A DNA stretch of 64,000 bases from IMG/VR virus record IMGVR_UViG_3300045988_163768; one strand, 5' to 3'. A program made the position numbers and the translations under genes. The notes beneath the pieces are model-generated. The model ran no database searches. It had not been told where the DNA came from and saw only the letters and a list, made by a program, of their open reading frames with translations. This document shows positions 5,783 through 58,247 of the stretch, one piece after another. Numbering within the stretch: the stretch's first letter is position 1; each line of letters starts with the position of its first letter. Source of the DNA: a virus.

Positions 5783-5816
5783 ATTTATATAAGAAATGAG
5801 AAAGAGGGAATAAAAT

Positions 5817-6140: not shown

Positions 6141-6164
6141 AAAAGTTATGACAAAAATCTTAAA

Positions 6165-6494: not shown

Positions 6495-6523
6495 TTGATT
6501 TTTTAAAAAAATTATGCTATAAT
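6495..6523 (+). promoter_or_regulatory. promoter upstream of tRNA-Tyr leader
   Basis: TTGATT, 17 nt, then TATGCTATAAT. Confidence 0.6.
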
Positions 6524-6690
6524 AAAGGTATATTTCAGATACCTCGTAGCGGAAAAATCTGACGTTAATGAACAAAACGAGAAAATTGTTCTAATCTTTG
6601 GTAATTTGTAGAGATGGTAAATTACTTGGGGTACTATTAAGGCTCCAGAAGCATCGTCTTCTAAAGGATAGCTGTCCAACTTAATAATGA

Positions 6691-6772
6691 TGGGGAGTAA
6701 CCCAGCGGCGAGGGTAGCGGTCTGTAAAACCGTGACAAAGAAACGTCGTAGGTTCGAGTCCTACCTCCCCAA
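6691..6772 (+). tRNA. tRNA-Tyr (anticodon GTA), long variable arm
   Basis: Acceptor TGGGGAG/CTCCCCA, anticodon loop CTGTAAA, variable arm GACAAAGAAACGTC, T-arm GTAGGTTCGAGTCCTAC. Confidence 0.6.
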
Positions 6773-6841
6773 TTAAGATGGACACAGCAATGTTGCGTAA
6801 TATTGGGGATATTAAGTGCAAAAATAATTCCATCTTGTTTT

Positions 6842-6925
6842 GGCTCTGTAGCCTAGTTGGTTATGGTACCACTCTGTCACAGTGGAATAACACGGGTTCG
6901 AGTCCCGTCAGAGTCGTTTGGCTAA
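6842..6925 (+). tRNA. tRNA-Asp (anticodon GTC)
   Basis: Acceptor GGCTCTG/CAGAGTC, anticodon stem CCACT/AGTGG with loop CTGTCAC, T-arm ACGGGTTCGAGTCCCGT. Confidence 0.6.
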
Positions 6926-7024
6926 CAAAGCAAAAATGTATGATGACAACATACATTTTTTATGAACTTGTCATTCATATTTTTTATAAATTAAAGGTTG
7001 GATATTTGCCGGCACTTTAATTTT

Positions 7025-7098
7025 GGGGTTATAGTTCAGTCGGGATGAACGCTTGTTTTGCAAACAAGAGGTCGGGAGTTCGAGTCTCCCTAACTCCA
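7025..7098 (+). tRNA. tRNA-Ala (anticodon TGC)
   Basis: Acceptor GGGGTTA/TAACTCC, anticodon stem CTTGT/ACAAG with loop TTTGCAA. Confidence 0.6.
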
Positions 7099-7165
7099 CG
7101 CTTTGTTTCCGTCTTTGCATTGCAAAGCCAAGTAACTGAAGAACGGAACGATAGGTTACTTAAAT

Positions 7166-7194
7166 TTGATTTTTATAAAAAATTATTATATAAT
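7166..7194 (+). promoter_or_regulatory. promoter
   Basis: TTGATT, 17 nt, then TATTATATAAT. Confidence 0.55.
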
Positions 7195-7284
7195 ATATAA
7201 GTAATAAAAATAAAGAGACGCTAAAAGCAATTTCAAAAATTTGACTGTAAATCAAATCTCAAGGTGAGTACGCGTCTCGGATAA

Positions 7285-7355
7285 TGCTCCTTGGTGTAGT
7301 GGTAGCACATCGCACTTTGACTGCGACGGCATGGGTTCGAATCCCGTAGGAGCCG
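7285..7355 (+). tRNA. tRNA (anticodon TTG, Gln-type); a second TTG tRNA lies at 10358
   Basis: Anticodon stem TCGCA/TGCGA with loop CTTTGAC, T-arm ATGGGTTCGAATCCCGT; 1:72 is mispaired. Confidence 0.45.
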
Positions 7356-8223
7356 CTCGGATTATTAGTTATCCAACAACGCACTAACTTCGGCGAACAC
7401 GTTTGAAAAACTAATCGGCTGGCTTCAGGTCGTTAAATAAGCGTGGTGACACGTATAAAGCATGAAAATGCCTCCTTCTAAAGAGGAGTAATAGAAAGCC
7501 AATACTTACTAACGTTCCAACCTAAAGTTTTGGGGCATCCGCTGAGGACAATGGTTGGTCGGGCATCATGGGAAAGGTGCTATAAAATAAACTCAGAAAT
7601 GAGTGGATAGTAAGGTTGTTTTATGGTGCAAGTTCCGCAAGAGCAAGTGCTGTATTTAATTAGTCATTTCTGACTTAAATCGAAAGATAGTTGGAATAGC
7701 TTAAAGTAAGTCGATAGCAAGACGAGCAGGGTTGCGATGAGTGGGCTGTACTCAAAAGGTATAGATGCTCAAATGTGTACCTCGTAATCCATAATATATG
7801 TACATGATTGCATTGGATATTTAATCAGGAAGAGTCTGATTTGGTTTTCTAATATATTATATGAAAATAAAACATTTACTTATACAGCAAAAGTGTACAT
7901 GACTACATAGAGAAAAGCGACTTATTGTTCTGTAATATGGACACATATTGAACTCGCAAGGTGAGATATGAAAAAGTACAATTAGGTGCAACTCTAAGAG
8001 ACTGCAATCTTTGAATCCCGCAAGGAAGAATGTGCTGAAAGGAAATTTATAATACTATGTAGTAAGAGTTTGCCAGGAGCCACTGAAACTGGTGTCGCTA
8101 TTAGCTACGGATTAATCGTTCGTGTGATTACTTACTTCCAACGGTAAGCAAAGCTAATTATAATAGGTCAATAATCTCAGCCTAATAAAAAATTATTAAG
8201 GCGAGGAAACTCGCTTTTTAAAT

Positions 8224-8295
8224 GCCGGTATAGCATAGTTGGCAATGCGACTGATTTATAATCAGTAAACCGGGGTTCGAATCCCTCTACCGGCT
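8224..8295 (+). tRNA. tRNA-Ile (anticodon TAT), second copy
   Basis: Perfect acceptor GCCGGTA/TACCGGC, anticodon stem ACTGA/TCAGT with loop TTTATAA, T-arm GGGGTTCGAATCCC. Confidence 0.55.
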
Positions 8296-8513
8296 CGCAA
8301 ATCCTTTATTAAATGCGGTGAACGGCATACACAGCAATAGAGTGTAGGGCACAGCGGAAAAGGTACCTGTACTGGCTCCGCCGGGGTAAAGGCTTGAACC
8401 TAGGCAAGATCGCACCCACAATTCACAGTTATGTCACTGTGACATATCCGAAAAGGAGAAATTAAATGAGTCGCCATGGTAGACGGCAAGTTCGCAATAG
8501 TCTACTACAATAA

Positions 8514-8587
8514 AGAGTATGTGGTGTAATGGTAGCACACGAGTTTTGGGAACTTGAGGCGGCGTTCAAATCGCACATATTCTACTA
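8514..8587 (+). tRNA. probable tRNA-Pro (anticodon TGG); fold only partly resolved
   Basis: GTGGTGTAATGGTAGCACA D-region, anticodon stem CGAGT/ACTTG with loop TTTGGGA, TTCAAATC T-loop; two acceptor registers possible. Confidence 0.35.
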
Positions 8588-8707
8588 ACACGTGCAAATT
8601 TTTCTCACGTGGCTAAATAAGCTCTAGTGATGAAATTGGTAAACACAATACAACACAACACAATATTTAAGCTGCTGTGGGTTCGAGTTTCACTTAGAAT
8701 ATTTTAA

Positions 8708-8787
8708 GGGTGAGTGGTGTAATGGTAGCCACGCCAGTCTTAGGAACTGGTGCCTCGTGCGTGCGGGTTCGAATCTCGCCTCGCCTA
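8708..8787 (+). tRNA. tRNA-Leu (anticodon TAG), long variable arm
   Basis: Acceptor GGGTGAG/CTCGCCT, anticodon stem CCAGT/ACTGG with loop CTTAGGA, variable arm TGCCTCGTGCGT, T-arm GCGGGTTCGAATCTCGC. Confidence 0.6.
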
Positions 8788-9409
8788 TGAACAAGTTACA
8801 ATATGATGGTAAGCAGTTCAGGAGCTTTAAACGGTGCTATCCATTAGGTTAATAACCTTGTTATAATTGTAAGTCTGAGTAGTGGTTAATTGAAAAGAAA
8901 CTGCATTATAACAAAATAATTAAATATTTATAACCCGTGTGCGATTTGATCTTAATTTTATTTAACTAGCTAAATTTTATTAAGAAAAATTGGGTAATCG
9001 CTGAGACAAGGTTTGAGGAGTAGTAAGTCACTGTTTTATGAAAGTAGTAATAATGAGCTAGAAAAAATACTATAAGTAATTTAATAAGTACGAGCTAAAG
9101 TATATAACTATTAGGGTGGTTCGATTCCAGCCCCACGGGACTATGGTGCCGCAGTCACTTAATCCAGATTAAATCTGATGGGTGTTATGAAACGGTTAAA
9201 TGGACTTTGAGAGACAGCCAAACCGCCGTAAGGAGTAGGCGGTATAAAACGAACTAAACCATCTTTCAAGAATCCAGGCTATGAAAAGAGTACAATTACT
9301 TGATCGAGACCTAAGCCCCATGGTACTAGAGGAGCATGCGTGAATGTCAGACCTTATTCAAATAAGTTAGGGCTAAAAAGTACCTGAAACGCTAGGCAAA
9401 AAATCTTAA

Positions 9410-9438
9410 TTGATTTTTTAAAAAATATATGATATAAT
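9410..9438 (+). promoter_or_regulatory. promoter upstream of split tRNA
   Basis: TTGATT, 17 nt, then TATGATATAAT. Confidence 0.6.
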
Positions 9439-9541
9439 AAATACATGAAAACAAAGTATTAAAGATGCATTACAGCAATGAATTTCTGTATAGATAAAAG
9501 GAGTTTTTATAATAAGAGCATCTTGTAAATCAACGTTTTAA

Positions 9542-9573
9542 TGCCCTGTAGTCCAATGGTAGAACGGCTGGCT
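9542..9573 (+). tRNA. tRNA-Asn-like 5' half (acceptor, D-arm, 5' anticodon stem)
   Basis: TGCCCTGTAGTCCAATGGTAGAACGGCTGGCT closely matches the 5' half of E. coli tRNA-Asn; its partner strands lie at 10311-10350. Confidence 0.55.
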
Positions 9574-10310
9574 GTGCGGGAGTAGCATAAGTAATGCATT
9601 TGAACTATGGTCAACAGTGATTAACTCATAATGTTAATTCTTTATATTTATAAAATAGAAAAGGAGAAAAATTATGAGTAATAATATTAAAGCTGTTACA
9701 GATTTTAGAAAGAGAAGAAAGGAAAACTTAGTAAAAGTATTAGGTTCTTGTTGTAGCTTATGTGGATATAATAAATGTGTTGGAGCTTTAGAGTTTCATC
9801 ATATATATAAATCCAGAAGATAAAAAGTATCAATTATCCAGTGGAAATTGTCATAATATTGAAGAAGATTTAGAAGAAGTAAAAAAAAATGTCTTTTAGT
9901 CTGTTCAAATTGTCATAGAGAAATTCATACAACTAATTTGTATGAAGGAATTGATTTATGGAAATATCAAGTTTATAATGATAATTATGCGAATGAATTG
10001 ATACAAGAAAATAAAAAAGAAGAACGAAAATGTTCTAATTGCGGAATAAAAATTAGTCGTTTTTCTAAAACTGGTTTATGTCCATCATGTGCTCAATTAA
10101 AAAGACGAATTATTGAAAGACCTGATAGAGAAGAATTAAAAAAATTAATTCGAGAGTTACCTTTTACTAAAATTGCAGAAAAATATAATTGTAGTGATAA
10201 TACAATTAGAAAATGGTGCGATAAAGAAAATCTCCCTCGAAAAAAATCTGAGATTGATAAATACACTGATGAGCAATGGGAAAATATTTGAGTTCAAATC
10301 TCAACTTCTG
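9574..10310 (+). mobile_element. 737-bp insertion or intron in the tRNA anticodon loop, carrying a frameshifted HNH endonuclease gene
   Basis: Separates complementary halves of one tRNA: GCTGG...CCAGC anticodon stem and TGCCCTG...CGGGGCA acceptor. The 5' end reads GTGCGGG and the 3' end ...TTCTG. Confidence 0.5.
9674..10291 (+). pseudogene. HNH homing endonuclease, disrupted by two frameshifts (or requires recoding)
   Basis: Frame 1 gives MSNNIK...CCSLCGYNKC...LEFHHI then stops; HNH core LLVCSNCHREIHTTNLYEG continues in other frames after the runs ATATATATAAA and A9 (9887-9895); the last 117 aa form ORF 9938-10291. Confidence 0.55.
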
Positions 10311-10350
10311 ATTAACCAGCGTGTTGTGGGTTCAATTCCCACCGGGGCAG
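10311..10350 (+). tRNA. tRNA-Asn-like 3' half (3' anticodon stem, variable loop, T-arm, acceptor)
   Basis: ATTAACCAGCGTGTTGTGGGTTCAATTCCCACCGGGGCAG pairs with 9542-9573; removing 9575-10311 would give a CTGTTAA loop (GTT, Asn). Confidence 0.5.
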
Positions 10351-10357
10351 TTTATAA

Positions 10358-10429
10358 TGGGGTATCGCCAAGCGGTAAGGCATCGGACTTTGACTCCGAA
10401 ATACGCTGGTTCAAATCCAGCTACCCCAG
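10358..10429 (+). tRNA. tRNA-Gln (anticodon TTG)
   Basis: TGGGGTATCGCCAAGCGGTAAGGCA...CTTTGAC...GGTTCAAATCCAGCTACCCCAG, near-identical architecture to E. coli tRNA-Gln with U1-A72. Confidence 0.7.
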
Positions 10430-10782
10430 CTCAAATCTGAGAAATTGAAGAACCTCAGTCATAGATGACCTATGAAATTCTTCCAAGGTTGTTTCGTACT
10501 ATCAGCCTTGTAAATCAATGGGAAGTATGAGTACGGGATGAAGGGCTTACACTTCGCCGTCCTTGTAAGCTAAGGACTTGACAGAGATGGTATCGAAAGC
10601 TAATTTCATTAAAAGCGTCATCTTTTAATGAAGTGGAAAAATAGATACATACAGCAATTATACTGCTCATATAGGGCACTTTCCTGCTAAGAAAGAATAT
10701 TTCAGTATCTAGCTATTTTATCCTGTCTTTTTAAGCACACTATTTCTACAGGAACGGTTAATGAAAAGGCTGATAAAGGAGA

Positions 10783-10974
10783 TTGAATATGTATATTTGT
10801 CCTACTTGTAAAAAAGGATTTGAAAAAGAAGAAAATCTTACAAAACATTTTCTTTCCTGTTGGAAAGAGCAACATCCATCTCATGTTTCTAAATCCGCCC
10901 CAAGGAGTGAGAATACTGAAACTAGAAAGGTAAATAAAGATATTATAAAGTTCTTTAATTCTTTTAAGGAGTGA
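10783..10974 (+). CDS. small C2H2-like zinc-finger protein
   Basis: RBS AAAGGAGATTGAATATG; CPTCKK...H...SC. Confidence 0.4.
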   Translation: MNMYICPTCKKGFEKEENLTKHFLSCWKEQHPSHVSKSAPRSENTETRKVNKDIIKFFNSFKE

Positions 10975-10978
10975 CAAG

Positions 10979-11329
10979 ATGGCGGAAGTATTAGTAAAAA
11001 CTCATTTAGTAGTAACAGATGTGCACGAAGAATATGATATCAACTGGTGCGGTAGGATTCTTGATGTAAGACCAAAGATTAAAAATAATATGCCTGTCTT
11101 TGTAGTAGTTAGTTCTAGAGGAAGAATGGAAGTTAATACTACTGACATGCAAAGAGTTGAAAGATGTGCTAAACTATTAACTGCTCCAAGAGGTAGACAA
11201 GCAGTTACGACAGATACGGCTCGTATCTTTATCGTAGAAGAAAATGAAAATGAAGTTTTGATGGGCGTTTTAACTCATAATCATGTTAAAAGTTATGCAC
11301 CAATGTTTGATAAAGTTGATTTTGTTTAG
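10979..11329 (+). CDS. hypothetical protein
   Basis: RBS TAAGGAGTG; 116 aa. Confidence 0.45.
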   Translation: MAEVLVKTHLVVTDVHEEYDINWCGRILDVRPKIKNNMPVFVVVSSRGRMEVNTTDMQRVERCAKLLTAPRGRQAVTTDTARIFIVEENENEVLMGVLTHNHVKSYAPMFDKVDFV

Positions 11330-11336
11330 AAAATGA

Positions 11337-11420
11337 GGGAGTGTAAACGGCTAAGGAGTCCGACCTGACTGTAAATCAGGTGGCATTTGCATCGAGTGGG
11401 TTCGATTCCCTCCACTCCCA
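11337..11420 (+). tRNA. class II tRNA with anticodon GTA (Tyr-type), second copy
   Basis: Acceptor GGGAGTG/CACTCCC, anticodon stem CCTGA/TCAGG with loop CTGTAAA, variable arm GGCATTTGCATC, T-loop TTCGATT. Confidence 0.5.
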
Positions 11421-11736
11421 CGCTGTGGCGAAGGAACACACATAAAACTCCTTAACTGTGATAGACCTGGTTAAAAGCTAATGAAGTTAGTCCGCGAGGA
11501 TGCGGTAGACTTGAATGTCAAGCTAATCATTAGATCAAAGGGAAAACTTTATATAAATGATCGTTGGTAATACCATTTATGTGAAAGATGCTTATAATAC
11601 CAACTTAATAAGCATCAAGTGCGTTAAAGCTGATCGTACATATTATAACACTCTTTCGTCTAAAAGGAATAGGATATTACCCTCTCAAGGTAAAGATAAC
11701 AGTTCGAGTCTGTTAAGAGTGATTAAAAAATCTTAA

Positions 11737-11765
11737 TTGATTTTTTAAAAAATATATGATATAAT
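11737..11765 (+). promoter_or_regulatory. promoter
   Basis: TTGATT, 17 nt, then TATGATATAAT. Confidence 0.6.
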
Positions 11766-11787
11766 AAATATATCAAAAGAAAAGAAA

Positions 11788-11861
11788 CACACCATCGTCT
11801 AGCAGGTACAGGATAGAAGCCTTTCAAGCTTCAGACGCGAGTTCAAGTCTCGCTGGTGTGA
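11788..11861 (+). tRNA. tRNA-Glu (anticodon TTC)
   Basis: Acceptor CACACCA/TGGTGTG, anticodon stem GAAGC/GCTTC with loop CTTTCAA, T-arm GCGAGTTCAAGTCTCGC. Confidence 0.6.
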
Positions 11862-11950
11862 TTTTAAGACAGATACTGCAATTTTATTTTAAGAAGAGAA
11901 CTTTTAATTCTTTTGGCTTAACAAATCTGTCTTGTAAATTAAAAATCTTA

Positions 11951-11979
11951 ATTGATTTTTTAAAAAATATATGATATAA
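11951..11979 (+). promoter_or_regulatory. promoter (duplicate of 11737 copy)
   Basis: Identical 45-nt block AAAAATCTTAATTGATTTTTTAAAAAATATATGATATAATAAATAT. Confidence 0.6.
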
Positions 11980-12192
11980 TAAATATATCAAAAGAAGAAA
12001 GGAAATGATATTTATGTTTGATGATTTTGACTTAGGTACACAGTGTGAAGAATTTTATGATGAGTCCAAATATTGGGAATTCATTATGAACGAGGAGCCA
12101 ATAGAAGAAGAGTAATAAGTTTTTTAGCTTTATAGTTAAGCAGTCTAAGACTAATTCTGAGAACCTGGGTTTGAATCCCAGTACAAATATGC

Positions 12193-12265
12193 GGCTCCGT
12201 GGTCTAAGGGTTAGGATACGACCCTTTCAAGGTCGTAATGCTGGGTTCAAGTCCCGCCGGGGTCA
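12193..12265 (+). tRNA. tRNA-Glu (anticodon TTC), duplicated copy
   Basis: Acceptor GGCTCCG/CGGGGTC, anticodon stem CGACC/GGTCG with loop CTTTCAA; downstream flank also duplicated. Confidence 0.5.
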
Positions 12266-12367
12266 TTTAAGACAGAAACAGCAAACAATTATATTATTTC
12301 AAGGAAAGAACTTTTAATTCTTATAAATCTAAAATAAACTGTCTTGTAAAAAAGGAGAAAATTTTTT

Positions 12368-12595
12368 ATGACTGACAAAGAAAAATTACTTGGTGGAATC
12401 AAATTGATTCAATCTGCTTGTCACAATAGTCCTTTTATTGTAGAAGATTTTCTTGATGAGGATTTTACTGAATTAAAAAAACAGTATTCTTCCTTACCCG
12501 CTTCCAGAGTTTCTTTTATAATTGCGAATGGTTATGAAAGAGAACCAGTAGGTTTTGATTTTGATGAATTGGGAAATTTTCTCGGAAGATTTTAA
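12368..12595 (+). CDS. hypothetical protein
   Basis: RBS AAAAGGAGAAAA. Confidence 0.4.
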   Translation: MTDKEKLLGGIKLIQSACHNSPFIVEDFLDEDFTELKKQYSSLPASRVSFIIANGYEREPVGFDFDELGNFLGRF

Positions 12596-12598
12596 TAT

Positions 12599-12673
12599 CG
12601 CGGGGTAGAGCAGCCTGGAAGCTCGCTTGGCTCATAACCAAGAGGTCGTGGGTTCGAATCCCACCCGCCGCAA
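12599..12673 (+). tRNA. initiator tRNA-fMet (anticodon CAT)
   Basis: CGCGGGGTAGAGCAGCCTGGAAGCTCGCTTGGCTCATAACCAAGAGGTCGTGGGTTCGAATCCCAC closely parallels E. coli tRNA-fMet, including three G-C pairs in the anticodon stem and a C1 mismatch. Confidence 0.7.
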
Positions 12674-13077
12674 TTTTGTCTTTTATTTACAGATAAACCT
12701 AGGAAGTTATTAGTAAATAAGAACAAACGTTCTTCATGCGGAGATGAAGTGACTTTAGTGGTTTGAATAAGGAAACCGTTCCCGAATGTGGGTGAAAGTA
12801 AGATTCGTTAGTGCTTCTCTTATCTTTTGCTAATATAGCTAAAAAATAGAAGCGTGGTAAAAGCTGGGTGACGTCATATGAAACGCGGATACCAAACGCC
12901 GCGAGTGCAAGAAACCAGTGTTGCACATCTCTTTCTTTAAAATGTATTGTAAAAATTACATAGGTTTATTTTGTGCCTTTCTGTAAAAACAAAATATTAA
13001 ATTCCTCTTTCTGAGCAAGGTAGCGACTATTTAGGTGGCGGTGGTGTAAGCATATAGCATAGGCTCTAAAAATAATT

Positions 13078-13105
13078 TGAAAAAAATAAAAAATTATGAT
13101 ATAAT
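13078..13105 (+). promoter_or_regulatory. promoter
   Basis: TTGAAA, 16 nt, then TATGATATAAT. Confidence 0.5.
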
Positions 13106-13144
13106 AAATATATCAAAAGAAAAGAAAAGAAAAAAGAAATATAA

Positions 13145-13218
13145 GCTTAAGTAGCTCAGTTGGTTAGAGCACATGTCTGATAAGCATGAGGTCGGTGGTT
13201 CAAGTCCATTCTTAAGCA
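13145..13218 (+). tRNA. tRNA-Ile (anticodon GAT)
   Basis: GCTTAAGTAGCTCAGTTGGTTAGAGC...CTGATAA...GGTGGTTCAAGTCCATTCTTAAGC resembles E. coli tRNA-Ile. Confidence 0.7.
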
Positions 13219-13544
13219 TCAAGTTTATAGGCTTACTTTTTAAAAACCTACGATAGTCAAAAGCATATGGGCAGACAATAGATATGCAATGCAATGCAAG
13301 TGAATTTTCTTGTCCGAGCGATTCGGTTAAATCGTGGAGGCAGAAGTGCCTGTTAAAAAGTACTGCGGACGTCCATTGTAATTAAAGTATCAAATAATTA
13401 AATAATTTTGCAGACTGATAAATTAAATCTTTTGTCTTTGAAAGTTGGATAGATATAACTTTCTATTAGCAAAGCCTTTAATGTCAATGCTTAATATAAG
13501 GTTTTATCCTCTTGGAGTAAAGAGCCTTTGAATCTATTCATTTT

Positions 13545-13626
13545 GGGTGTGTGACGGAAAGGTATACGTGGCGGACTTAAAATCCGCTGACTTAGAGTCA
13601 TGTGAGTTCGAATCTCATCACGCCCA
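13545..13626 (+). tRNA. tRNA-Leu (anticodon TAA)
   Basis: Acceptor GGGTGTG/CACGCCC, anticodon stem GCGGA/TCCGC with loop CTTAAAA, long variable arm, T-arm GTGAGTTCGAATCTCAT. Confidence 0.6.
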
Positions 13627-13712
13627 CTGTTCATGAAACTGTTTTCCTTCCTTTAGGGTGTTAATTCCCTTATAATAAATTAACAAACTGAAGAGTTTAA
13701 CACTCTTCATTT

Positions 13713-13797
13713 GGAGGTATGCTGCAACTGGCGAGACAGAGCGGACTTAAAATCCGCTACATTAGAAACACTGTGGGTTCGAATCCCACTACCTTCA
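13713..13797 (+). tRNA. tRNA-Leu (anticodon TAA), second copy with divergent D region
   Basis: Acceptor GGAGGTA/TACCTTC, identical anticodon arm GCGGACTTAAAATCCGC, T-arm GTGGGTTCGAATCCCAC. Confidence 0.45.
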
Positions 13798-13801
13798 TTA
13801 A

Positions 13802-13880
13802 GCTCTTATGGCGGAATGGCATACGCAGTAGTCTCAAAAGCTACGGAGAAATCATTTGGGTTCGAGTCCCAATAGGAGCA
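13802..13880 (+). tRNA. tRNA-Leu (anticodon CAA)
   Basis: Acceptor GCTCTTA/TAGGAGC, anticodon stem GTAGT/GCTAC with loop CTCAAAA, 11-nt variable region, T-arm TTGGGTTCGAGTCCCAA. Confidence 0.5.
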
Positions 13881-14025
13881 TTAAAACCTTCGTTATAAAT
13901 ATCTCAACAGGGTGTTTACCTTACGGTAGTATTTGCGGAGAGAGGATAGTTCAGCGTAAGAGATATACGAGACTATGTAAGTTATCGGCAAGTCAGTAGG
14001 TTTCTGCGAAGGTTACCTACACTAA

Positions 14026-14098
14026 GCGGGAATGGCGGAATGGCATACGCGTGAGTCTTAGGAACTCAATTTTGTGGGTTCGAGTCCCACTTCCCGTA
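14026..14098 (+). tRNA. tRNA with anticodon TAG (Leu codon CUA) but a short variable loop
   Basis: Acceptor GCGGGAA/TTCCCGT, anticodon stem TGAGT/ACTCA with loop CTTAGGA, 5-nt variable loop, T-arm GTGGGTTCGAGTCCCAC. Confidence 0.45.
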
Positions 14099-14405
14099 TC
14101 CTATGATATAAAATTAGACTAAAGAGTCATAGGTAATTAAATTATTTATTTTAGATGTTATTTTTCACTTTATCAAGAAGTCAAGAGAAGGTTTGGAATC
14201 CTTTGTAAGCAACTTGCATCTAGGCTTCAGTAAAGTTGAAAACACTTAAGCTTAAGTTTTAAAATTAAAAGATGGAATTTTTAGATGACATGTGGTTTGT
14301 TTGCTTTATTGCTTTATCCCAAAAGTAAAAAAGTAAAAAGTAAAACTAGTAAATGGAGTTTTTAGACTGTTTTTCTCGTATAGGAAGCATATAAAACGGT
14401 CACAG

Positions 14406-14478
14406 GGGAAGATGGCTTATATGGTAAAAGCGTAGGACTGAAAATCCTAAGATGTAGGATCGTTACCTACTCTTCCCA
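14406..14478 (+). tRNA. tRNA-Phe (anticodon GAA) with unusual T-loop ATCGTTA
   Basis: Perfect acceptor GGGAAGA/TCTTCCC, anticodon stem TAGGA/TCCTA with loop CTGAAAA. Confidence 0.5.
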
Positions 14479-14481
14479 TCT

Positions 14482-14569
14482 GTGCGGTTGGCAGAGAGGC
14501 TGATTGCAGTGGATTGCTAATCCACGAACCGGGGAAACCGGTTCAGAGGTTCGAATCCTCTACCGCACG
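14482..14569 (+). tRNA. tRNA-Ser (anticodon GCT)
   Basis: Acceptor GTGCGGT/ACCGCAC, anticodon stem GTGGA/TCCAC with loop TTGCTAA, long variable arm GAACCGGGGAAACCGGTTC, T-arm AGAGGTTCGAATCCTCT. Confidence 0.65.
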
Positions 14570-14570
14570 T

Positions 14571-14599
14571 TTGAAAATAATAAAAAATTATGATATAAT
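14571..14599 (+). promoter_or_regulatory. promoter
   Basis: TTGAAA, 17 nt, then TATGATATAAT. Confidence 0.55.
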
Positions 14600-14630
14600 T
14601 ATTATATCAAAAGAAAAGGAGATTGATAAT

Positions 14631-14975
14631 ATGTTTACAGACCTGAATATGTATAATTATAAGTTTTATACTTCAAAAAATCTTGTTGTGGCGGTTACCA
14701 CATACGCGGGAAAAATTGTTAAAGGGAAAGCAAAATGCAACCCAGAGGATACATTTGATCTGGAGAAAGGAAAAGCTCTTGCCGCAGTAAGATGCAATGC
14801 AAAAATTGCAAAGAAAAGGGTTAAGAGAGCTTCTGGTAAATTTGAAGAAGCAATCGAAAGATATAATAAAGCGTCAGAATATCTTGAAGAAATGACTGCT
14901 TATATTAACGATGCAGAAATTTTGGAGCAGAGAGCAGAAGATGAACTCGCTGAAGTGCTTTCAGATTTTAAATAA
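14631..14975 (+). CDS. hypothetical protein
   Basis: RBS AAAGGAGATTG; the longer track ORF from 14514 overlaps tRNA-Ser and the promoter, so the internal ATG is chosen. Confidence 0.45.
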   Translation: MFTDLNMYNYKFYTSKNLVVAVTTYAGKIVKGKAKCNPEDTFDLEKGKALAAVRCNAKIAKKRVKRASGKFEEAIERYNKASEYLEEMTAYINDAEILEQRAEDELAEVLSDFK

Positions 14976-15123
14976 TTAAATAAATAAAGGCTTACTTATC
15001 ACACAGCAATCATACGATAATAGAGAATAGAATAGATAGTTTTATATTTTATATAAAACTTGAGAGAGAGTTTTAGTTTATTTGCTCTTAAAACTAAGTA
15101 ACCAAAAGTAAGCCTTGTATATG

Positions 15124-15207
15124 CCGCAGTACCTTAGTGGGGAGGAGGCTCTGTCTTGAAAACAGCTGCTCCGAGAGGGGCTGTAGGTTCGAATCCTACC
15201 TGCGGCG
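15124..15207 (+). tRNA. tRNA-Ser (anticodon TGA)
   Basis: Acceptor GCCGCAG/CTGCGGC, anticodon loop CTTGAAA, long variable arm TGCTCCGAGAGGGGC, T-arm GTAGGTTCGAATCCTAC. Confidence 0.6.
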
Positions 15208-15263
15208 TTCGAGATAGTTAAATATCTCAAAAGTAAAAAAAATGGGAAGGAGAAATATAAAGA

Positions 15264-15497
15264 ATGAAAATACATAATGTAACCGATATTGATAAGTTTT
15301 TCAAAGTAGTTAACTCTTGTGAAGGTAAAGTAGAGTTAGTAACAGGGCAGGGTGACAGACTTAACTTAAAGTCTACATTAACACAATATGTAGCTTTGGC
15401 AAAAGTTTTTTCTGATGGAAAGATTCCTGAAATGGAATTAGTTTGTTATGAGAAATCTGATGTGACTAAATTTATGGAGTATATGTTAAATGCCTAG
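15264..15497 (+). CDS. hypothetical protein
   Basis: RBS GGAAGGAGAAATATAAAGAATG. Confidence 0.4.
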   Translation: MKIHNVTDIDKFFKVVNSCEGKVELVTGQGDRLNLKSTLTQYVALAKVFSDGKIPEMELVCYEKSDVTKFMEYMLNA

Positions 15498-15867
15498 TAG
15501 AAGAAATAGAGCCTATTACCGCAAGCAAAGAATTAAACATATCAAAAGAAAAAAGAATATTAGTGAACATTGTTATGGGTATGACTGGTATCAAGTAGAT
15601 GGAGCTTACTCAAAAGGTAAGATTCATTGCTCTTGTCCACTCTGCTCAGCAAAAACTAATAATAAAAGGCGGCATGGATATAATCATTCTAAAAATTGGA
15701 AACCTTCTGATTTAAAAAAAATTGAAGATATGGATTATCAAGAGCATGGTTTCCGCACATGTGAAGCGGATGTAACAGAAAGCTGGGACGATATAATTGT
15801 AAACGATGTTTCAGTAGATGGAATTCCTCTTGATGGTCATTATTTTGACAATGTAATAGATTTTTAG
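15490..15867 (+). CDS. hypothetical Cys/His-rich protein
   Basis: Overlaps upstream gene by 8 nt; CSCPLCS motif. Confidence 0.4.
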   Translation: MPSRRNRAYYRKQRIKHIKRKKNISEHCYGYDWYQVDGAYSKGKIHCSCPLCSAKTNNKRRHGYNHSKNWKPSDLKKIEDMDYQEHGFRTCEADVTESWDDIIVNDVSVDGIPLDGHYFDNVIDF

Positions 15868-15966
15868 TTTCTTATTACTTTTTCCTTTCTCTTTTGGTTT
15901 AAAGTTTATAATCTTATTTTTAGGTTTTTTAAGAATTATAAATGAAAATTGAAAGGAGAACTTTAG

Positions 15967-16167
15967 ATGGGATATTGTGTAATAAGAAATAACAATAAGT
16001 ATATTTACAATTTAGTTGAGATAATTTGTGATCTTGAGTCTGATGTAGTAAGTATACCGACTACTTTTTCTCCAGGAAGTAAAGTTTTTGTTGTGGAGAG
16101 TTCTTCATATTATATGCTAAATGCATCAAAAGAGTGGAAGAAACTAGTAAAGACGGGAAGGAGTTAA
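15967..16167 (+). CDS. hypothetical protein
   Basis: RBS GAAAGGAGAAC. Confidence 0.35.
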   Translation: MGYCVIRNNNKYIYNLVEIICDLESDVVSIPTTFSPGSKVFVVESSSYYMLNASKEWKKLVKTGRS

Positions 16168-16248
16168 TGGTTCTATTGAAGAATTAAATAACAAAATTAA
16201 GACACTTTCAACAAATGTTTTATATAAACCAGATAGTAAAAATCTTAA

Positions 16249-16277
16249 TTGAAATTTTAAAAAATTTATGATATAAT
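16249..16277 (+). promoter_or_regulatory. promoter
   Basis: TTGAAA, 17 nt, then TATGATATAAT. Confidence 0.55.
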
Positions 16278-16364
16278 AAATATATAATAAAGATAAAGAC
16301 AAAAACAGCAATTTATAAGCATTTAATTGGGGATTAAAGAAGCTAAGTTATTTTGTCTTGTTCG

Positions 16365-16438
16365 CGGGATGTGGTCTAGTTTGGTAAGACGCTGGATTTG
16401 GGTTCCAGAAATCGCAGGTTCGAATCCTGTCATCCCGT
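16365..16438 (+). tRNA. tRNA-Pro (anticodon TGG)
   Basis: Perfect acceptor CGGGATG/CATCCCG, anticodon stem CTGGA/TCCAG with loop TTTGGGT, T-arm GCAGGTTCGAATCCTGT. Confidence 0.6.
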
Positions 16439-16440
16439 TT

Positions 16441-16511
16441 GCGGAAGAGAGAAACGGTTTACTCGGTAGGCTCATAACCTAAAGACATCAGGTTCGACTC
16501 CTGTTTCCGCT
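16441..16511 (+). tRNA. tRNA-Met or Ile2 (anticodon CAT, elongator type)
   Basis: Acceptor GCGGAAG/TTTCCGC, anticodon loop CTCATAA, TTCGACT T-loop. Confidence 0.5.
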
Positions 16512-16514
16512 ACT

Positions 16515-16587
16515 GTGGCTGTGGCAGATAAGGTAATGCATTAGATTGTGACTCTAAATTATATGGGTTCAAATCCCATCAGTCACC
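16515..16587 (+). tRNA. tRNA-His (anticodon GTG)
   Basis: Acceptor GTGGCTG/CAGTCAC, anticodon stem TTAGA/TCTAA with loop TTGTGAC, T-arm ATGGGTTCAAATCCCAT. Confidence 0.6.
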
Positions 16588-16855
16588 TAGTAAGCTGCTA
16601 TGAGGTTTACGAACACACTTAGTGTGGAGGAGAAATGCATAGGTCTTGCATAACAGACTGGCGTTATGTCGTTCAAGAAGAGATGGTGTATTAACGAACC
16701 TCACTTCGAATCTACGAGAAAGATTCAATAAAGATTAGTCGTTATATGCTTTTTAAGAGGAAAATAAGTTTGAGCGTCAAACTTGACTCACAATAACTTT
16801 TATGGCTTATGTTATTGTGGAAAGCCAAAAATTATAAAATGAAAAGGAAAATACT

Positions 16856-17092
16856 ATGAAAGTATCTATAGTAGCATATTTAGATTATTTAATAGGTCGT
16901 CTTAGACATGGTCATTTAGAAGGAGTTCTATATATCCCAGATGAAGATGCGAAATTATTTAAAGATAATCCTGCAAAGTATTTAAAAAATCATCCTGATT
17001 ATAAAGATTATTTAGACCTTATAGTAGATGATTTTGAAGTAGAAGATATGGGAGATATTGACATGGTATCTTTTAAAACTTTAGGTTTTTAG
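16856..17092 (+). CDS. hypothetical protein
   Basis: RBS AAAAGGAAAATACTATG. Confidence 0.4.
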   Translation: MKVSIVAYLDYLIGRLRHGHLEGVLYIPDEDAKLFKDNPAKYLKNHPDYKDYLDLIVDDFEVEDMGDIDMVSFKTLGF

Positions 17093-17164
17093 AGGATATA
17101 ACTCAGTTGGAAGAGTATCAAACTTTTAATTTGAGAGTCGTGGGTTCAAGTCCCACTATCCTCA
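17092..17164 (+). tRNA. tRNA-Lys (anticodon TTT)
   Basis: Perfect acceptor GAGGATA/TATCCTC, D-arm ACTCAGTTGGAAGAGT, anticodon stem TCAAA/TTTGA with loop CTTTTAA, T-arm GTGGGTTCAAGTCCCAC. Confidence 0.7.
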
Positions 17165-17175
17165 CTAAGCGTTAA

Positions 17176-17204
17176 TTGATTTTTTAAAAAAATTATGATA
17201 TAAT
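17176..17204 (+). promoter_or_regulatory. promoter
   Basis: TTGATT, 17 nt, then TATGATATAAT. Confidence 0.6.
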
Positions 17205-17340
17205 AAATATATATAAAAGCACATACAGCAAATTCTACTATGTAGATTACTGGTTCGAATCCAGTTTTGTGATGAAAGTTTACAAATAGCTTAATAGGTC
17301 AAGCAACATTAAATTGAGTGCTTTGCAATATCATAAATAA

Positions 17341-17413
17341 GGCTTCTTGATTAAGTGGTTAAGACATTATCATCTTACGGTGATGTTAGAGGTTCGACTC
17401 CTCTACCGTTCAC
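17341..17413 (+). ncRNA. tRNA-like element, possibly degenerate tRNA-Arg (ACG)
   Basis: Anticodon-like hairpin CATC-TTACGGT-GATG and canonical T-arm AGAGGTTCGACTCCTCT, but no 5' strand found to pair with the 3' acceptor ACCGTTC. Confidence 0.25.
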
Positions 17414-17527
17414 TGATTTTGTCTGATTCTTGGCTGAATGTAGAAACTAAAAAATAATCCGCAAAAATCGCATTTTGAAAATTCTGGTATACTGTAAGTG
17501 TAAAGAAAAACAAAAAGGAGCAGAAAA

Positions 17528-54007: not shown

Positions 54008-54010
54008 TGA

Positions 54011-54036
54011 TTGGGAGCTTAGCTCCCAATTTATTT
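54011..54036 (+). terminator. rho-independent terminator
   Basis: TTGGGAGCTTAGCTCCCAA followed by TTTATTT. Confidence 0.55.
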
Positions 54037-54098
54037 AACTTAATAATGGCGAATAATAAATAATAAATTAAATAAAGAAAGTTAGAGGAAAGATAATT

Positions 54099-54191
54099 AT
54101 GGGAATTGATTTACTTAACATTAAACCGCATCAAGTATCAAGAGATTTAAGAGGATACAGTGTATTCTTCTATGGAGAGCCTAAGAGTGGT
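54099..54191 (+). CDS. AAA_24/RecA-like ATPase, exon 1 (ends within Walker A GEPKSG)
   Basis: MGIDLLNIKPHQVSRDLRGYSVFFYGEPKSG; RBS GAGGAAAGATAATTATG; stop follows 2 codons into the intron. Confidence 0.55.
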
Positions 54192-55184
54192 GAATAGAGA
54201 GAGAATTTTTGCCACGATAATATGGGGAAATTGCGGGGATAGAATATAATCAATAAAGACTAAGTTATAATAGCGATATTATAATGGCAAGTAGTAATGT
54301 GCTTGGTATAGTAAAACGTTTATTGTAGTTCCAATCCGCAGCCAAGTGTCTCACGGAGACAAAGGTTCAACGACTAGGTTTTATAACCGTAGATTTTATA
54401 ATCGAAATACCCGTAGGTATTTAGGAGGAATAATTATGGAAAAACAAGAAATTTGGAAAAAAATTTTAATTAACGGTCAAGAAACTTTTTATAGTGTATC
54501 TAATTATGGTAATGTGCGTAATGATTCAACTAAAACCTTATTAGGAGGATCAGTTACTAATAATGGTTATCGTATGGTGCATTTACGTTATCGAATAGAT
54601 AAGAATTGCTCAGTTCATAGATTGGTTATGAAAGCATTTAAACCTTGTGAAGAGATGGATGAATTGCAAGTTAATCATATAGATGGAAATAAATTAAATA
54701 ATAATATAGATAATTTAGAGTGGTCAACAGCATTAGAGAATATGCGTCATAGTTACACTAGTAATTTACAACAACATGAAATGAAAGAATGTCATCAATA
54801 TGATTTAAGTGGCAATTACATTCAGTCTTTTGTAAATGGTTATGAAGCTGCACAAAAGCTTAATTTGGATTACACTAGTATATGGAGATGTATAACAGAA
54901 CAACAGCAGCATTATAAACAATATCAGTTTAAATCGTATAAAAAAGATAAGATCAACTGTTGGAGTAATTCAAACAAGAAAATAGTTTATGTATATGATA
55001 ATAATGGTAATTTTATTGACTCTTATAATTCACAAAAAGAGTGTGCTAAAGCTTTTGGAGTTGCACCTTCATCTATTTGCCGATATTTAAAAGGTATTCG
55101 TAAATTAAAAGGTTTTGTTTTTTCTGATATTCCTTTATAAATATTTGAAGATATAGTCTGATGTATTATATTATATAATATATG
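54192..55184 (+). mobile_element. group I-type intron (993 nt) carrying an HNH homing endonuclease gene
   Basis: Exon 1 ends T, insert ends G; rejoined Walker A reads GEPKSG|KTT. Confidence 0.55.
54436..55140 (+). CDS. intron-encoded HNH homing endonuclease with C-terminal DNA-binding module
   Basis: HRLVMKAF...QVNHIDGNKLNNNIDNLEW, an HNH_3 signature; RBS TTAGGAGGAATAATTATG. Confidence 0.7.
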   Translation: MEKQEIWKKILINGQETFYSVSNYGNVRNDSTKTLLGGSVTNNGYRMVHLRYRIDKNCSVHRLVMKAFKPCEEMDELQVNHIDGNKLNNNIDNLEWSTALENMRHSYTSNLQQHEMKECHQYDLSGNYIQSFVNGYEAAQKLNLDYTSIWRCITEQQQHYKQYQFKSYKKDKINCWSNSNKKIVYVYDNNGNFIDSYNSQKECAKAFGVAPSSICRYLKGIRKLKGFVFSDIPL

Positions 55185-56123
55185 AAAACGACGATCGCAA
55201 CCAAGTTTCCCCGCCACCTGTTACTGGCTTTTGAAAAAGGATACAATGCGATTCCTGGAGCAATGGCTCAGCCAATTAACACCTGGGCGGAATTTAGAAA
55301 AGTACTGAGACAATTAAAAGATGAAAAAGTAAAAGAACAGTTCGAAACAGTTATTATAGACACGGCAGACATCGCATATGATTTATGCGAGAAGTATATT
55401 TGTGCTAATGCGAAAAGACCAGATGGCGGATTCGGAGTAGATTCTGTTAGTGATATCCCATTCGGGAAGGGGTATACTCAAGTCGCTAAAGAATATGATG
55501 AATGTTTACGTTCTATTATTCAAATGGATTACGGTTTAGTTTTAATTAGTCACTCAGTAGATAAAACTTTTAAAGATGAGCAAGGTCAAGAGTATAATCA
55601 GATCGTTCCTACCTTAGGAAATAAACCTAGAGCGATTGTATCTCGAATGTGCGATATTATAGGCTATTCTCGTAGTGTTCAAGATGAAGAAGGTAAAACT
55701 TCAACTAAGTTATTTATGCGTGGAACGCCAAGATATATTGCAGGCTCTCGTTTTAAATATACTCCAGATTACATTGATTTTAATTATCAAAGCTTAGTTG
55801 ATGCTATTGGCATGGCTATTGATAAACAAATGGAAGAAGATGGAAGTGAGTATTTTACAGACGAAAGATCAAACTTATATAAAGACACAAGAGCAGAATT
55901 AGATTTTGATGAATTATTGAATAGTTTCAATACTATTGTAAATGATTTAATCATGCAAAAATCTAATGAGGAATTTAAAGAATATTGGCAGCCTAGAATC
56001 GTTCAAATTACAGATAGATATTTGGGAAAAGGTATGAAAGTTAGTCAATGTTCAAGAGATCAAGTTGAGGCTTTAGATTTGATTGTCACTGATTTAAAAG
56101 AATTAATAAAAAGTGTGGATTAG
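55185..56123 (+). CDS. AAA_24/RecA-like ATPase, exon 2
   Basis: KTTIATKF...VIIDTADI..DLCE.., an AAA_24-like core lacking its own Walker A, which exon 1 supplies. Confidence 0.55.
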   Translation, partial: KTTIATKFPRHLLLAFEKGYNAIPGAMAQPINTWAEFRKVLRQLKDEKVKEQFETVIIDTADIAYDLCEKYICANAKRPDGGFGVDSVSDIPFGKGYTQVAKEYDECLRSIIQMDYGLVLISHSVDKTFKDEQGQEYNQIVPTLGNKPRAIVSRMCDIIGYSRSVQDEEGKTSTKLFMRGTPRYIAGSRFKYTPDYIDFNYQSLVDAIGMAIDKQMEEDGSEYFTDERSNLYKDTRAELDFDELLNSFNTIVNDLIMQKSNEEFKEYWQPRIVQITDRYLGKGMKVSQCSRDQVEALDLIVTDLKELIKSVD

Positions 56124-56136
56124 TCCACACTTTTTT
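56113..56136 (+). terminator. rho-independent terminator
   Basis: GTGTGGATTAGTCCACAC followed by TTTTTT. Confidence 0.65.
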
Positions 56137-56708: not shown

Positions 56709-58247
56709 GTGGGAAAATATGTAGATATCCCATCTATTATTCAAGTTATTGGGGGAATTTATTTAAACCCTAATTTACTAGATGAAGATGGAAAATACTT
56801 TTTTAATGAAGAAGATTTTACAGAAGAATTTCATAAAATTCTTTTTGGGTCTATATATAATTTACATGAATTAGGTGCTAAAGAAATTTCTATCAATGCG
56901 ATAGAAGATTATTTAGAGCAAAGACCAAAAAGCTATGCAGTTTATAAGGCTAATAAGGGACAAGAATATCTTCAAAAATTAAGTAAATCAGTACAATTAG
57001 CGGCTTTTGATTTCTATTATAATAGAATGAAAAAGATGACTCTGCTAAGAATGTATCAAAGTATAGGAATGGACTTATCATGGCTATATGATATAGATAA
57101 CATCATGGATGTTAAAAAGAAACAAGCTCAAGAAGATTGGTTAGACAACTCATCTATTGAAGATATCGCAGAGATCATTGACAAAAAAATTACTGATATA
57201 AGATTAAAGTATGTAGATGATGCTTCTAATGGTGCGGAACTAGCAGGCAATGGGGCATTAGAACTGCTCGAACGCTTAAGAGAGACCCCTGAAGCAGGAT
57301 ATCCTTTATTCGGACCCTTGATAAATACTGTAACTAGAGGGGCTAGATTAAAGAAATTTTATTTGCGATCAGCCGCAACTGGAGTAGGAAAAACAAGAGC
57401 GATGATCGCAGACGCATGCTCTATTGCCTGCGATGAAATTTATGATTCTAAAGAAGAAAAATGGATTTCAAATGGAACTAAAGAACCAACAATCTTTATT
57501 TCAACAGAACAAGAGAAAGATGAAATTCAGACTATGATAATTGCTTTTTTATCTGATGTAGATGAAGAGCATATTATTTCTGGAGAATATTATGCTGGAG
57601 AATGGGAGCGTGTTATTTACGCGGCAAATCTTTTAAAGAGATGTCCATTATATATAGAACAATTACCAGATTTTTCTCTAAAAGATATTGAGAATACTAT
57701 TAAACGTGGAGTTAGAGAATATGATGTTAAATATGTATTCTTCGATTACATACATACAAGCATGAAAATTCTAAGTGAAGTTTCGTCTAAAACTGGAGTG
57801 AGAGGATTGAGAGAGGATAATATCCTTTTTATGATTTCAATCCGTTTAAAAGATATGTGTAACCAGTATGGTATTTTTATTATGACAGCAACTCAGTTAA
57901 ATAGTAGTTATATAACAGCTCAGCAATATGACCAAAATCTTTTAAGAGGAGCTAAGTCTATTGCTGATAAAATTGATTGTGGTATGATTATGCTTGAAGT
58001 TGATAATGATGATCGTACGGCTTTAGAAAATGTTTTAGCTCAAGGCGGATTTGAGACTCCTCAAATTAAAATATCTATTTATAAAAATCGTAGGGGTAGA
58101 TATAAAGGAATTTTATTGTGGTGTAAGGCGAATAGAAGTGTTTGTAAAATTGAACCAATGTTCGCAACAAATTATAATTACGAGTTAATTCCAATAGAAG
58201 ATTTAAAAATAAAAGTTAAATCTAATAATAAAGAATCTGCATTTTAA
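56709..58247 (+). CDS. replicative DNA helicase, DnaB-like
   Basis: Walker A AATGVGKT, Walker B FFDYIH, TATQLNS motif. Confidence 0.7.
   Translation: MGKYVDIPSIIQVIGGIYLNPNLLDEDGKYFFNEEDFTEEFHKILFGSIYNLHELGAKEISINAIEDYLEQRPKSYAVYKANKGQEYLQKLSKSVQLAAFDFYYNRMKKMTLLRMYQSIGMDLSWLYDIDNIMDVKKKQAQEDWLDNSSIEDIAEIIDKKITDIRLKYVDDASNGAELAGNGALELLERLRETPEAGYPLFGPLINTVTRGARLKKFYLRSAATGVGKTRAMIADACSIACDEIYDSKEEKWISNGTKEPTIFISTEQEKDEIQTMIIAFLSDVDEEHIISGEYYAGEWERVIYAANLLKRCPLYIEQLPDFSLKDIENTIKRGVREYDVKYVFFDYIHTSMKILSEVSSKTGVRGLREDNILFMISIRLKDMCNQYGIFIMTATQLNSSYITAQQYDQNLLRGAKSIADKIDCGMIMLEVDNDDRTALENVLAQGGFETPQIKISIYKNRRGRYKGILLWCKANRSVCKIEPMFATNYNYELIPIEDLKIKVKSNNKESAF

Follow-up and report, generated by a model that had tools for sequence, protein, structure and literature searches.

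A predicted group I intron carrying an HNH endonuclease gene in the Walker A codons of a Sak4-like phage ATPase gene

The 64,000-nucleotide (nt) stretch of viral DNA analysed here (IMG/VR record IMGVR_UViG_3300045988_163768; this whole stretch is called the window, and positions are counted from its first base) carries at 54,099 to 56,123 a gene that, judged by the name of its protein family, would encode a Sak4-like recombination ATPase (AAA_24, SPbeta YorG-type). The gene is very probably interrupted by a functional group I intron whose excision restores the P-loop (Walker A motif) of the ATPase, and which bears an HNH endonuclease gene of its own. This reading is carried by intron-less alleles that have the predicted junction and by a ribozyme fold whose internal guide follows the exon it pairs with across relatives. 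An initial annotation, drawn from the sequence alone, had proposed the split gene; its elements are borne out below apart from the length of one open reading frame (ORF).

The split ATPase gene and its uninterrupted alleles

Exon 1 opens with the ATG at 54099, reaches ...SVFFYGEPKSG at 54191 and runs into GAA TAG. It had been described as a 31-codon ORF with its own ribosome-binding site; the coordinates, the GAGG in front and the 31 exon codons stand, but the ORF itself counts 32 codons by mechanical listing, one intronic GAA codon preceding the stop. The downstream ORF starts at 55182, its ATG (55182-55184) being formed by the final three intron bases, and no Shine-Dalgarno sequence is read in front of this ATG. 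Joining 54191|55185 (the bar marks the junction) recreates, as initially proposed, the P-loop GEPKSGKTT in a product of 343 amino acids (aa), the interruption separating codon 31 (Gly) of the Walker A loop from codon 32 (Lys). The joined protein matches Pfam AAA_24 (PF13479) with 130.4 bits (cut-off 27, E 1e-37) over positions 2-195 of the 195-position profile, Walker A included, and PHROG 124 (phrog_124, 'Sak4-like ssDNA annealing protein') at 1.6e-50, so that the family assignment of the host gene holds once the exons are joined.

The uninterrupted form of the gene exists. A search of 5.8 billion proteins, with roughly 3,500 homologues, yields from public metagenomes a contiguous 343-aa protein (P0001) that is 100% identical to the predicted spliced product, and four others that are 99% identical. 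Intron-less DNA with the same gene neighbourhood as the window (L001-L003) reads ...AAGAGTGGT|AAAACGACG... at the site, with AGTGGT|AAAACG at the junction; the predicted ligated-exon junction is ...AAGAGUGGU|AAAACGACG... and the intron-less target site around the insertion point is ...GAGCCTAAGAGTGGTAAAACGACG..., also given as GAGCCTAAGAGTGGTAAAACGACGATCGC. Moving the junction by one base in either direction does not reproduce the intron-less sequence (L002 included). No junction sliding is possible and the insert is therefore exactly 54192-55184, the 993 nt of the initial annotation, with U54191 as the last base before it and G55184 as its own last base, as had also been noticed.

Isolated phages have the gene in one piece as well. 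The closest are Enterococcus phages of ~134-142 kb, including VRE9_4, with 52% identity to the joined protein, and SPbeta yorG shows 31% identity; in all of them the gene is uninterrupted and syntenic, and the uninterrupted homologues contain the first 31 codons. The neighbours of the ATPase gene are of YorF, YorH and DnaB type, in a YorF-YorG-YorH-DnaB module that is syntenic with relatives. This neighbourhood is the yorF-yorG-yorH-yorI replication/recombination module of SPbeta.

The split has consequences for annotation that the initial annotation had anticipated. Proteins of 313 aa starting with MKTT... form at least 29 clusters; they come from intron-bearing genomes in which exon 2 alone was called as a gene, and one of them is 'ATP-binding protein [Megamonas funiformis]' (RefSeq WP_440972221.1). 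Databases including RefSeq thus hold dozens of 313-aa 'ATP-binding proteins' devoid of Walker A, together with orphan 32-aa ORFs, and recognition of the intron restores one functional recombination ATPase in their place.

Ribozyme structure and covariation

The coordinates of the gene, the putative intron and its helices are collected in Table 1. A covariance scan of the insert gives a local match to Rfam Intron_gpI (RF00028) at 54219-54415 (27.8 bits, E 1e-4) that covers P3, P4, P5, P6 and the R element; together with a full hand-built structure and covariation among relatives it upholds the group I assignment of the initial annotation. Exact R (GTTCAACGACTA) and S (AAGATATAGTC) elements are found within the 64-kb window only in this insert, in the right order and on the right strand. 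The two strands of P8 enclose the endonuclease ORF, which therefore lies in the P8 loop.

Table 1. Features of the interrupted ATPase gene and of the predicted intron in the window (two ranges separated by a slash are the strands of one helix)
Feature	Position	Strand	Basis
Terminator-like hairpin ending the upstream YorF-like gene, ahead of the ribosome-binding site of the ATPase gene	54009..54031	+	
GAGG ribosome-binding site of exon 1	54085..54088	+	read directly
Exon 1, 31 codons, MGIDLLNIKPHQVSRDLRGYSVFFYGEPKSG, first half of the Walker A loop	54099..54191	+	
P1: exon GUGGU (54187-54191) with internal guide GCCAC (54211-54215); wobble U54191·G54211 at the 5' splice site	54187..54215	+	
Predicted group I intron, 993 nt, terminal guanosine G55184	54192..55184	+	
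P10 guide strand UUUU; partner is AAAA, the first four bases of exon 2 (55185-55188)	54207..54210	+	
Catalytic core, 5' part	54221..54415	+	Rfam match and pair counts
P3	54221-26 / 54410-15	+	
P4	54232-37 / 54335-40	+	
P5	54242-45 / 54328-31	+	
P5a	54251-57 / 54319-25	+	
P5b, GCGA loop	54264-72 / 54277-85	+	
P5c	54288-93 / 54300-05	+	
P6	54341-43 / 54364-66	+	
P6a	54347-52 / 54356-61	+	
R element and P7 5' strand	54365-76	+	
P7.1	54377-80 / 54385-88	+	
P7.2	54392-95 / 54400-03	+	
P8 5' strand GUAUUU; partner 55139-55144	54417..54422	+	
Shine-Dalgarno AGGAGG of the endonuclease ORF, seven bases ahead of the start	54424..54429	+	
Putative intron-encoded HNH homing endonuclease, 234 aa	54437..55140	+	domain matches
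Catalytic core, 3' part	55139..55184	+	
P8 3' strand, overlapping the ORF stop codon	55139-44	+	
J8/7 and S element AAGAUAUAGUC	55148-58	+	
P7 3' strand	55154-59	+	
P9 hairpin, 10 base pairs (bp)	55161-70 / 55174-83	+	
Terminal G	55184	+	
Exon 2, KTTIATKF... through the stop codon, remainder of the Sak4-like/YorG-type ATPase	55185..56123	+	
Terminator-like hairpin at the ATPase gene end	56108..56135	+	

Relatives of the intron were retrieved from viral and metagenome contigs with a pattern taken from the P7.1-P7.2 stretch (L106, L212, L213/L215, L216, L217 and L218). All members of the family are inserted at the same G|K position of the ATPase gene despite their diverged exon-1 peptides. L106 has the exon-1 peptide GPPKIG|KTT, an HNH protein ~61% identical to that of the window and a ribozyme that has diverged too. 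The same family scores higher in relatives than in the window (Rfam 39.5 bits, E 7e-8). A more general core pattern, AATCCGCAGC...GTTCAACGACTA, was tried on viral contigs and rejected as unspecific, the return being more than 120 mixed group I introns, some from giant-virus contigs, with L106 as the sole true relative. The family-specific pattern had zero matches in genome contigs, so these give no prophage or host clue.

Covariation was assessed on an ORF-deleted alignment (A1) of eight sequences with the hand-built structure of 76 pairs. Standard pairs occupy 94.9% of cells vs 35-46% when the partners are slid by 1-3 columns, and in 28 of the 76 pairs both partners change. Covariation scores 0.372 vs 0.134 for shuffles, none of 500 shuffles reaching the observed value, and the signal is concentrated in P1, P5, P5a, P5b (whose GNRA loop is retained), P5c, P6, P6a and P8. 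The P8 helix is paired throughout (100%), with three pairs altered on both sides, and the P10 pairing AAAA/UUUU is kept in 90.6% of cells. The U·G pair of P1 is present in all eight sequences and two further P1 pairs change in a compensatory way that follows the exon sequence, giving the exon/guide combinations GUGGU/GCCAC, UAGGU/GCCUA and GCGGU/GCCGC. The guide tracks the exon with U·G retained, a pattern for which it is difficult to find a cause other than a need for P1, and with it for splicing of the RNA.

P7.1 and P7.2 are two 4-bp hairpins (54377-88 and 54392-54403) between P7 and P3', where introns of subgroup IA typically have such helices; they are unchanged in 8/8 sequences, hence without covariation, and by its architecture the intron may be IA2-like. 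A single change in P9, G55163>A in L005 and L007, converts a G·U into an A-U pair. Separately, L007 has a double change, G54227>A and A54409>G, in two opposed bases at the inner end of P3 (G·A to A·G) that may form a conserved non-canonical pair. Note also that the Gly codon ahead of the site varies among uninvaded genes. The intron-less L001, with a 100% identical protein, has GGC and not GGT (its position 3093, equal to 54191 of the window), an allele in which, if invaded, the U·G pair could not form; in 70 intron-less relatives the codon is GGA in 31, GGT in 25, GGC in 12 and GGG in 2.

The endonuclease, intron mobility and alternative explanations

The 234-aa intron ORF behind AGGAGG is the HNH_3 endonuclease with a strong ribosome-binding site that the initial annotation had recognized. 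Its domain matches are all above cut-offs: HNH_3 (6.4e-13), NUMOD4 (2.8e-10), two copies of NUMOD1 (4.1e-14) and I-HmuI_NUMOD-like (4.9e-10; C-terminal, DNA-binding). It also matches phrog_59 (9e-45). The sole PDB match is I-HmuI of phage SPO1 (1U3E; E 1.5e-8, N-terminal ~100 residues), the alignment comprising VHRLV and (D/N)H.DGNK.NN...NL.W with the DH..N..N core aligned. Among the proteins of deposited phages none exceeds 37% identity to it. Searched by Megablast in 50,697 phage records, the region gives one match, of 58 nt (window 54667-54724, 91-93% identical), inside HNH genes of Staphylococcus epidermidis phages such as Terranova and BE04; nothing else in the region matches those records at the nucleotide level, and it has no deposited close relative. 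By analogy, the enzyme would nick one strand near the insertion site.

The proposed course of events is as follows. In the pre-mRNA the five bases that end exon 1 (GUGGU) would pair with the guide GCCAC to form P1, whose U·G wobble would mark the cleavage site, and the P3-P9 core would fold about a guanosine pocket in P7 (G54372-C55158, beside the bulged C54371). A free guanosine would attack 3' of U54191; P10 would then align exon 2, the terminal G55184 would occupy the pocket, and ligation of the exons would give an mRNA for the 343-aa protein with an intact GEPKSGKT loop. In unspliced RNA, translation would end two codons into the intron and exon 2 would lack a ribosome-binding site of its own. 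The I-HmuI-like endonuclease would be translated separately from the P8 loop. In a mixed infection it would most likely nick intron-less gene copies near the insertion site, and recombinational repair could then copy the intron into the nicked allele (homing).

The gene sequences of the closest clade speak on both selection and mobility. When the window is compared with sister intron-bearing genomes, 40-41 exon codons differ synonymously and 6 non-synonymously, and every change in exon 1 is synonymous; selection therefore still acts on the split gene as on one protein. The intron itself has 0-3 differences in 993 nt (at least 99.7% identity) across genomes whose exon 2 differs by ~45 of 939 nt (~5%), and with 19 differences, all of them synonymous, an intron-less allele lies nearer to the window exons than the other intron-bearing alleles do. 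Such a near-identical intron in diverged exons means that the same intron recently entered different allelic backgrounds, which suggests recent homing. At this one precise site the insert is absent from L001-L003 and L132 and present in L004-L011, L135 and the window, with 95-100% protein identity. Rough counts in the closest clade, in which contigs are not independent genomes, are 168 contigs with the HNH-intron allele, 22 with a second (LAGLIDADG) intron and 12 with an intron-less gene. That the intron is mobile at present through its HNH enzyme is likely, though less certain than that it is a functional intron.

Several points weigh against a functional, mobile group I intron. The Rfam score is below the 50-bit gathering score of RF00028, because the ~700-nt (704-nt) ORF in P8 interrupts the model, and in a whole-window Rfam scan at E<=0.01 the intron match is lost and no other group I match appears. 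The insert has no P2 helix. The structure put to the slid-partner control was built from the window sequence, which gives it an advantage there, and none of P3, P4, P7, P7.1 and P7.2 varies among the eight sequences, which leaves these helices with conservation and not covariation as support. The splicing chemistry is a prediction deduced from the nucleotides. In a related survey, half of the validated phage introns, 4 of 8 from Bastillevirinae phages, were spliced only in infected cells (PMC11878797), and strict self-splicing is therefore uncertain. A clear co-conversion tract was looked for among intron-bearing genomes and not found: the exon differences between them begin at 54185, 7 nt before the intron, and at 55193, 9 nt beyond it, and any such tract is very short.

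These points feed the explanations that compete with an active, self-sufficient intron. The one that survives best, a possibility of clearly minor weight, is that the intron is a genuine group I intron that has lost self-splicing and folds with the help of a host or phage protein, or whose endonuclease is inactive and whose inheritance is vertical only. In favour of this alternative are the surveyed introns that splice only in vivo, the AT-rich sequence of the present intron with its short helices and missing P2, and the lack of an evident co-conversion tract. Against it stands an intron 99.7-100% identical in exon backgrounds ~5% apart and found beside intron-less alleles, a distribution that argues for recent lateral movement. 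Against it, too, are an intact HNH ORF, a catalytic core that aligns to that of I-HmuI and the 61% identity kept in L106.

It is highly improbable that the insert is decayed and dead for splicing, a former intron or a free-standing HNH gene, in an ATPase gene that is a pseudogene or dispensable. This would agree with the sub-threshold Rfam score, with splicing being predicted from sequence only and with the many endonuclease insertions that phage genomes tolerate, sister genomes having extra GIY-YIG genes nearby. Yet both exons are open and under purifying selection, the detached exon 1 included, and are so in L106, L212 and L213 too; a guide that co-varies with the exon is sensible only if P1 must form; and a lethal or crippling insertion in a conserved gene of replication or recombination would not reach the share of contigs that the HNH-intron allele has over the intron-less one. 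An assembly or chimera artefact, or two separate genes that merely seem one when joined, can practically be dismissed: the window source is probably metagenomic, but the same arrangement is found base for base in many independent assemblies (ENA, Logan, JGI, IMG/VR) and every isolate homologue is one protein spanning the junction. A group II intron was rejected since the insert has no reverse-transcriptase ORF, and an intein since the host reading frame is not continued, a stop codon lying two codons into the insert.

Further insertions in the ATPase gene and related systems

Relatives mark the gene as a hot-spot for introns, and in some of them the P-loop codons are interrupted by a second, unrelated intron of group I type. 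In L133 (exon 2 98% identical; insert at 1368-2500) and in L150-L152 (79%) the gene is split after AGU (Ser), 3 nt upstream of the HNH-intron site, by an insert of ~1.1 kb that is unrelated to the HNH intron and has an ORF of the two-motif LAGLIDADG type (LAGLIDADG_3); the exon-2 calls of this type begin with xGKTT and are 314 aa long. An Rfam scan of the L133 insert gave no match. Four diverged copies nevertheless have the full group I helix order in hand-built structures checked sequence by sequence, the MAFFT alignment (A2) being poorly registered: P1 with U·G, P2 with a GNRA loop and P3-P9.2, the ORF lying between P7 and P3'. Complementarity survives many sequence changes and each of the four copies ends in G.

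Both types meet in L217 (106-kb contig, reverse strand, reverse-complement positions 2813-6300), whose ATPase gene has four inserts. The first is a LAGLIDADG-type intron after ...YGE, with G (or A) rather than U before the 5' junction and a fully Watson-Crick P1. The second is an HNH-type intron at G|K, preceded by a 12-nt micro-exon (CCGAAAAGCGGU, PKSG). The third (insert C), just ahead of ILDTAD (Walker B), is a group I intron with no ORF whose score exceeds the Rfam threshold (70 bits, E 5e-17), and the fourth, also ORF-less and of the LAGLIDADG-intron type, follows IPYG. L212 (reverse strand) has a second group I-like core (GGGCAATCAGCAGCCAAG...AAGGTTCAACGACTA) after ...VIDTA (Walker B), ~220 nt downstream of the 3' end of its HNH intron, with the type and position of L217 insert C.

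A tentative and rather speculative scenario is that at least two unrelated group I families (HNH at G|K, LAGLIDADG at S|G) compete for the P-loop DNA as a place to insert, and would replace each other in near-identical phages and coexist only when 12 nt apart, as in L217. The near-fixation of the HNH form would then stem from an endonuclease that acts as a weapon against co-infecting phages with no intron or with the rival one, and not from purely selfish spread. This widespread clade of ~130-150-kb phages in public metagenome assemblies holds a 1-kb gene that is empty, has the HNH intron, has the LAGLIDADG intron 3 nt off or has up to four inserts. It is a natural system for competition among homing elements, and for the way in which two ribozymes deal with an exon of 12 nt between them.

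The known hosts of phage group I introns are the DNA polymerase, ribonucleotide reductase, thymidylate synthase, terminase and lysin genes and a few others. In the library searched, no paper links a group I intron to a Sak4/AAA_24 gene. This host gene thus appears to be new for group I introns, adding the Sak4-like/YorG-type single-strand-annealing ATPase to the list, although the mechanism is that of a textbook mobile phage group I intron and brings no new principle.

Among the closest parallels is the intron of the DNA polymerase gene of Bacillus phage SPO1 with I-HmuI. There too a phage group I intron sits at a conserved motif of a DNA-metabolism gene and encodes an HNH endonuclease with NUMOD-type DNA-binding modules, its ORF being looped out of the ribozyme core and likewise located in P8; the host gene here is a Sak4-like ATPase and not a polymerase. 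Deposited phage introns match the ribozyme at 71-81% identity over no more than 48% of the query, with no extended nucleotide similarity, and the best partial core matches are in Staphylococcus and Bacillus Herelleviridae. The introns of that family (Twort orf142/nrdE, Staphylococcus phage polA with I-KsaIII, Bastillevirinae) resemble the present one in their IA-like cores and in belonging to large Firmicute-type phages. Of the endonuclease families encoded by Bastillevirinae introns, the HNH proteins of phrog_59 are the most frequent; genes with two or three introns are known, as is one case of double colonisation by HNH and LAGLIDADG introns (PMC11878797). The introns of this 2025 survey lie only in DNA polymerase, terminase, thymidylate synthase and ribonucleotide reductase genes (PMC11878797), a set to which the Sak4-like gene does not belong.

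The T4 td, nrdB and nrdD introns (IA2) have the splicing chemistry proposed for the window intron and, like it, P7.1/P7.2-type helices that separate P7 from P3' and a freestanding ORF placed in a peripheral loop. They home in mixed infections, as is proposed here too, but their enzymes are of the GIY-YIG type (I-TevI/II), make double-strand breaks and are encoded in other loops. Phage PhiPA3, whose intron is among the weak core matches, also has an intron-encoded endonuclease in an essential phage gene, and there the enzyme serves competition between co-infecting phages (PMC11620839); by analogy, the near-sweep of the intron allele might conceivably fit such a competitive role. The haloarchaeal MCM helicase gene, with its neighbouring inteins (PMC10643990), offers another case of a conserved gene whose nucleotide-binding region has been invaded by more than one selfish element, with possible interference between them. 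Those elements act by protein splicing, whereas the introns described here would splice as RNA and lie 3 or 12 nt apart.

Other endonuclease genes and reading-frame features were observed around the ATPase gene of relatives. In L004, L005, L006 and L008 (~5623-6600) the DnaB gene is split into 365 aa, a 230-aa GIY-YIG ORF and the remainder, and an Rfam scan of the split gene in L004 found no intron; the window DnaB (56709-58247, 512 aa) is intact, unlike that of these sister genomes. Extra GIY-YIG genes lie in L002 at 1247-1984 (between DUF7123 and YorF) and in L001 at 1-719 (upstream of thyX), places where the window has none; endonuclease content therefore varies among near-identical phages. 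Relatives of ~70% identity (L149, L183, L187, L192-L194, L196, L200, L202, L203, L205-L209) have in-frame TAG codons in the ATPase gene. One TAG takes the place of the E of the P-loop (G-TAG-PKSGKT) and several of these genes have another at a Gln of relatives (NI*PHQ vs NIQPHQ), which suggests that those phages decode TAG as an amino acid; the window has no sign of such reading.

Elsewhere in the window, 32 tRNA genes, all on the + strand, extend over 4759-20682 and cover most amino acids with several duplicates; no suppressor anticodon is found among them. Inside this array lies a full-length match to GOLLD RNA (RF02032) at 7729-8183 (+), with 100.2 bits (gathering score 150) and E 4e-25. 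A weak match to YrlA (Y RNA-like, RF02553; 37 bits vs a gathering score of 69, E 2e-4) directly follows tRNA-Lys at 17216-17327 (+).

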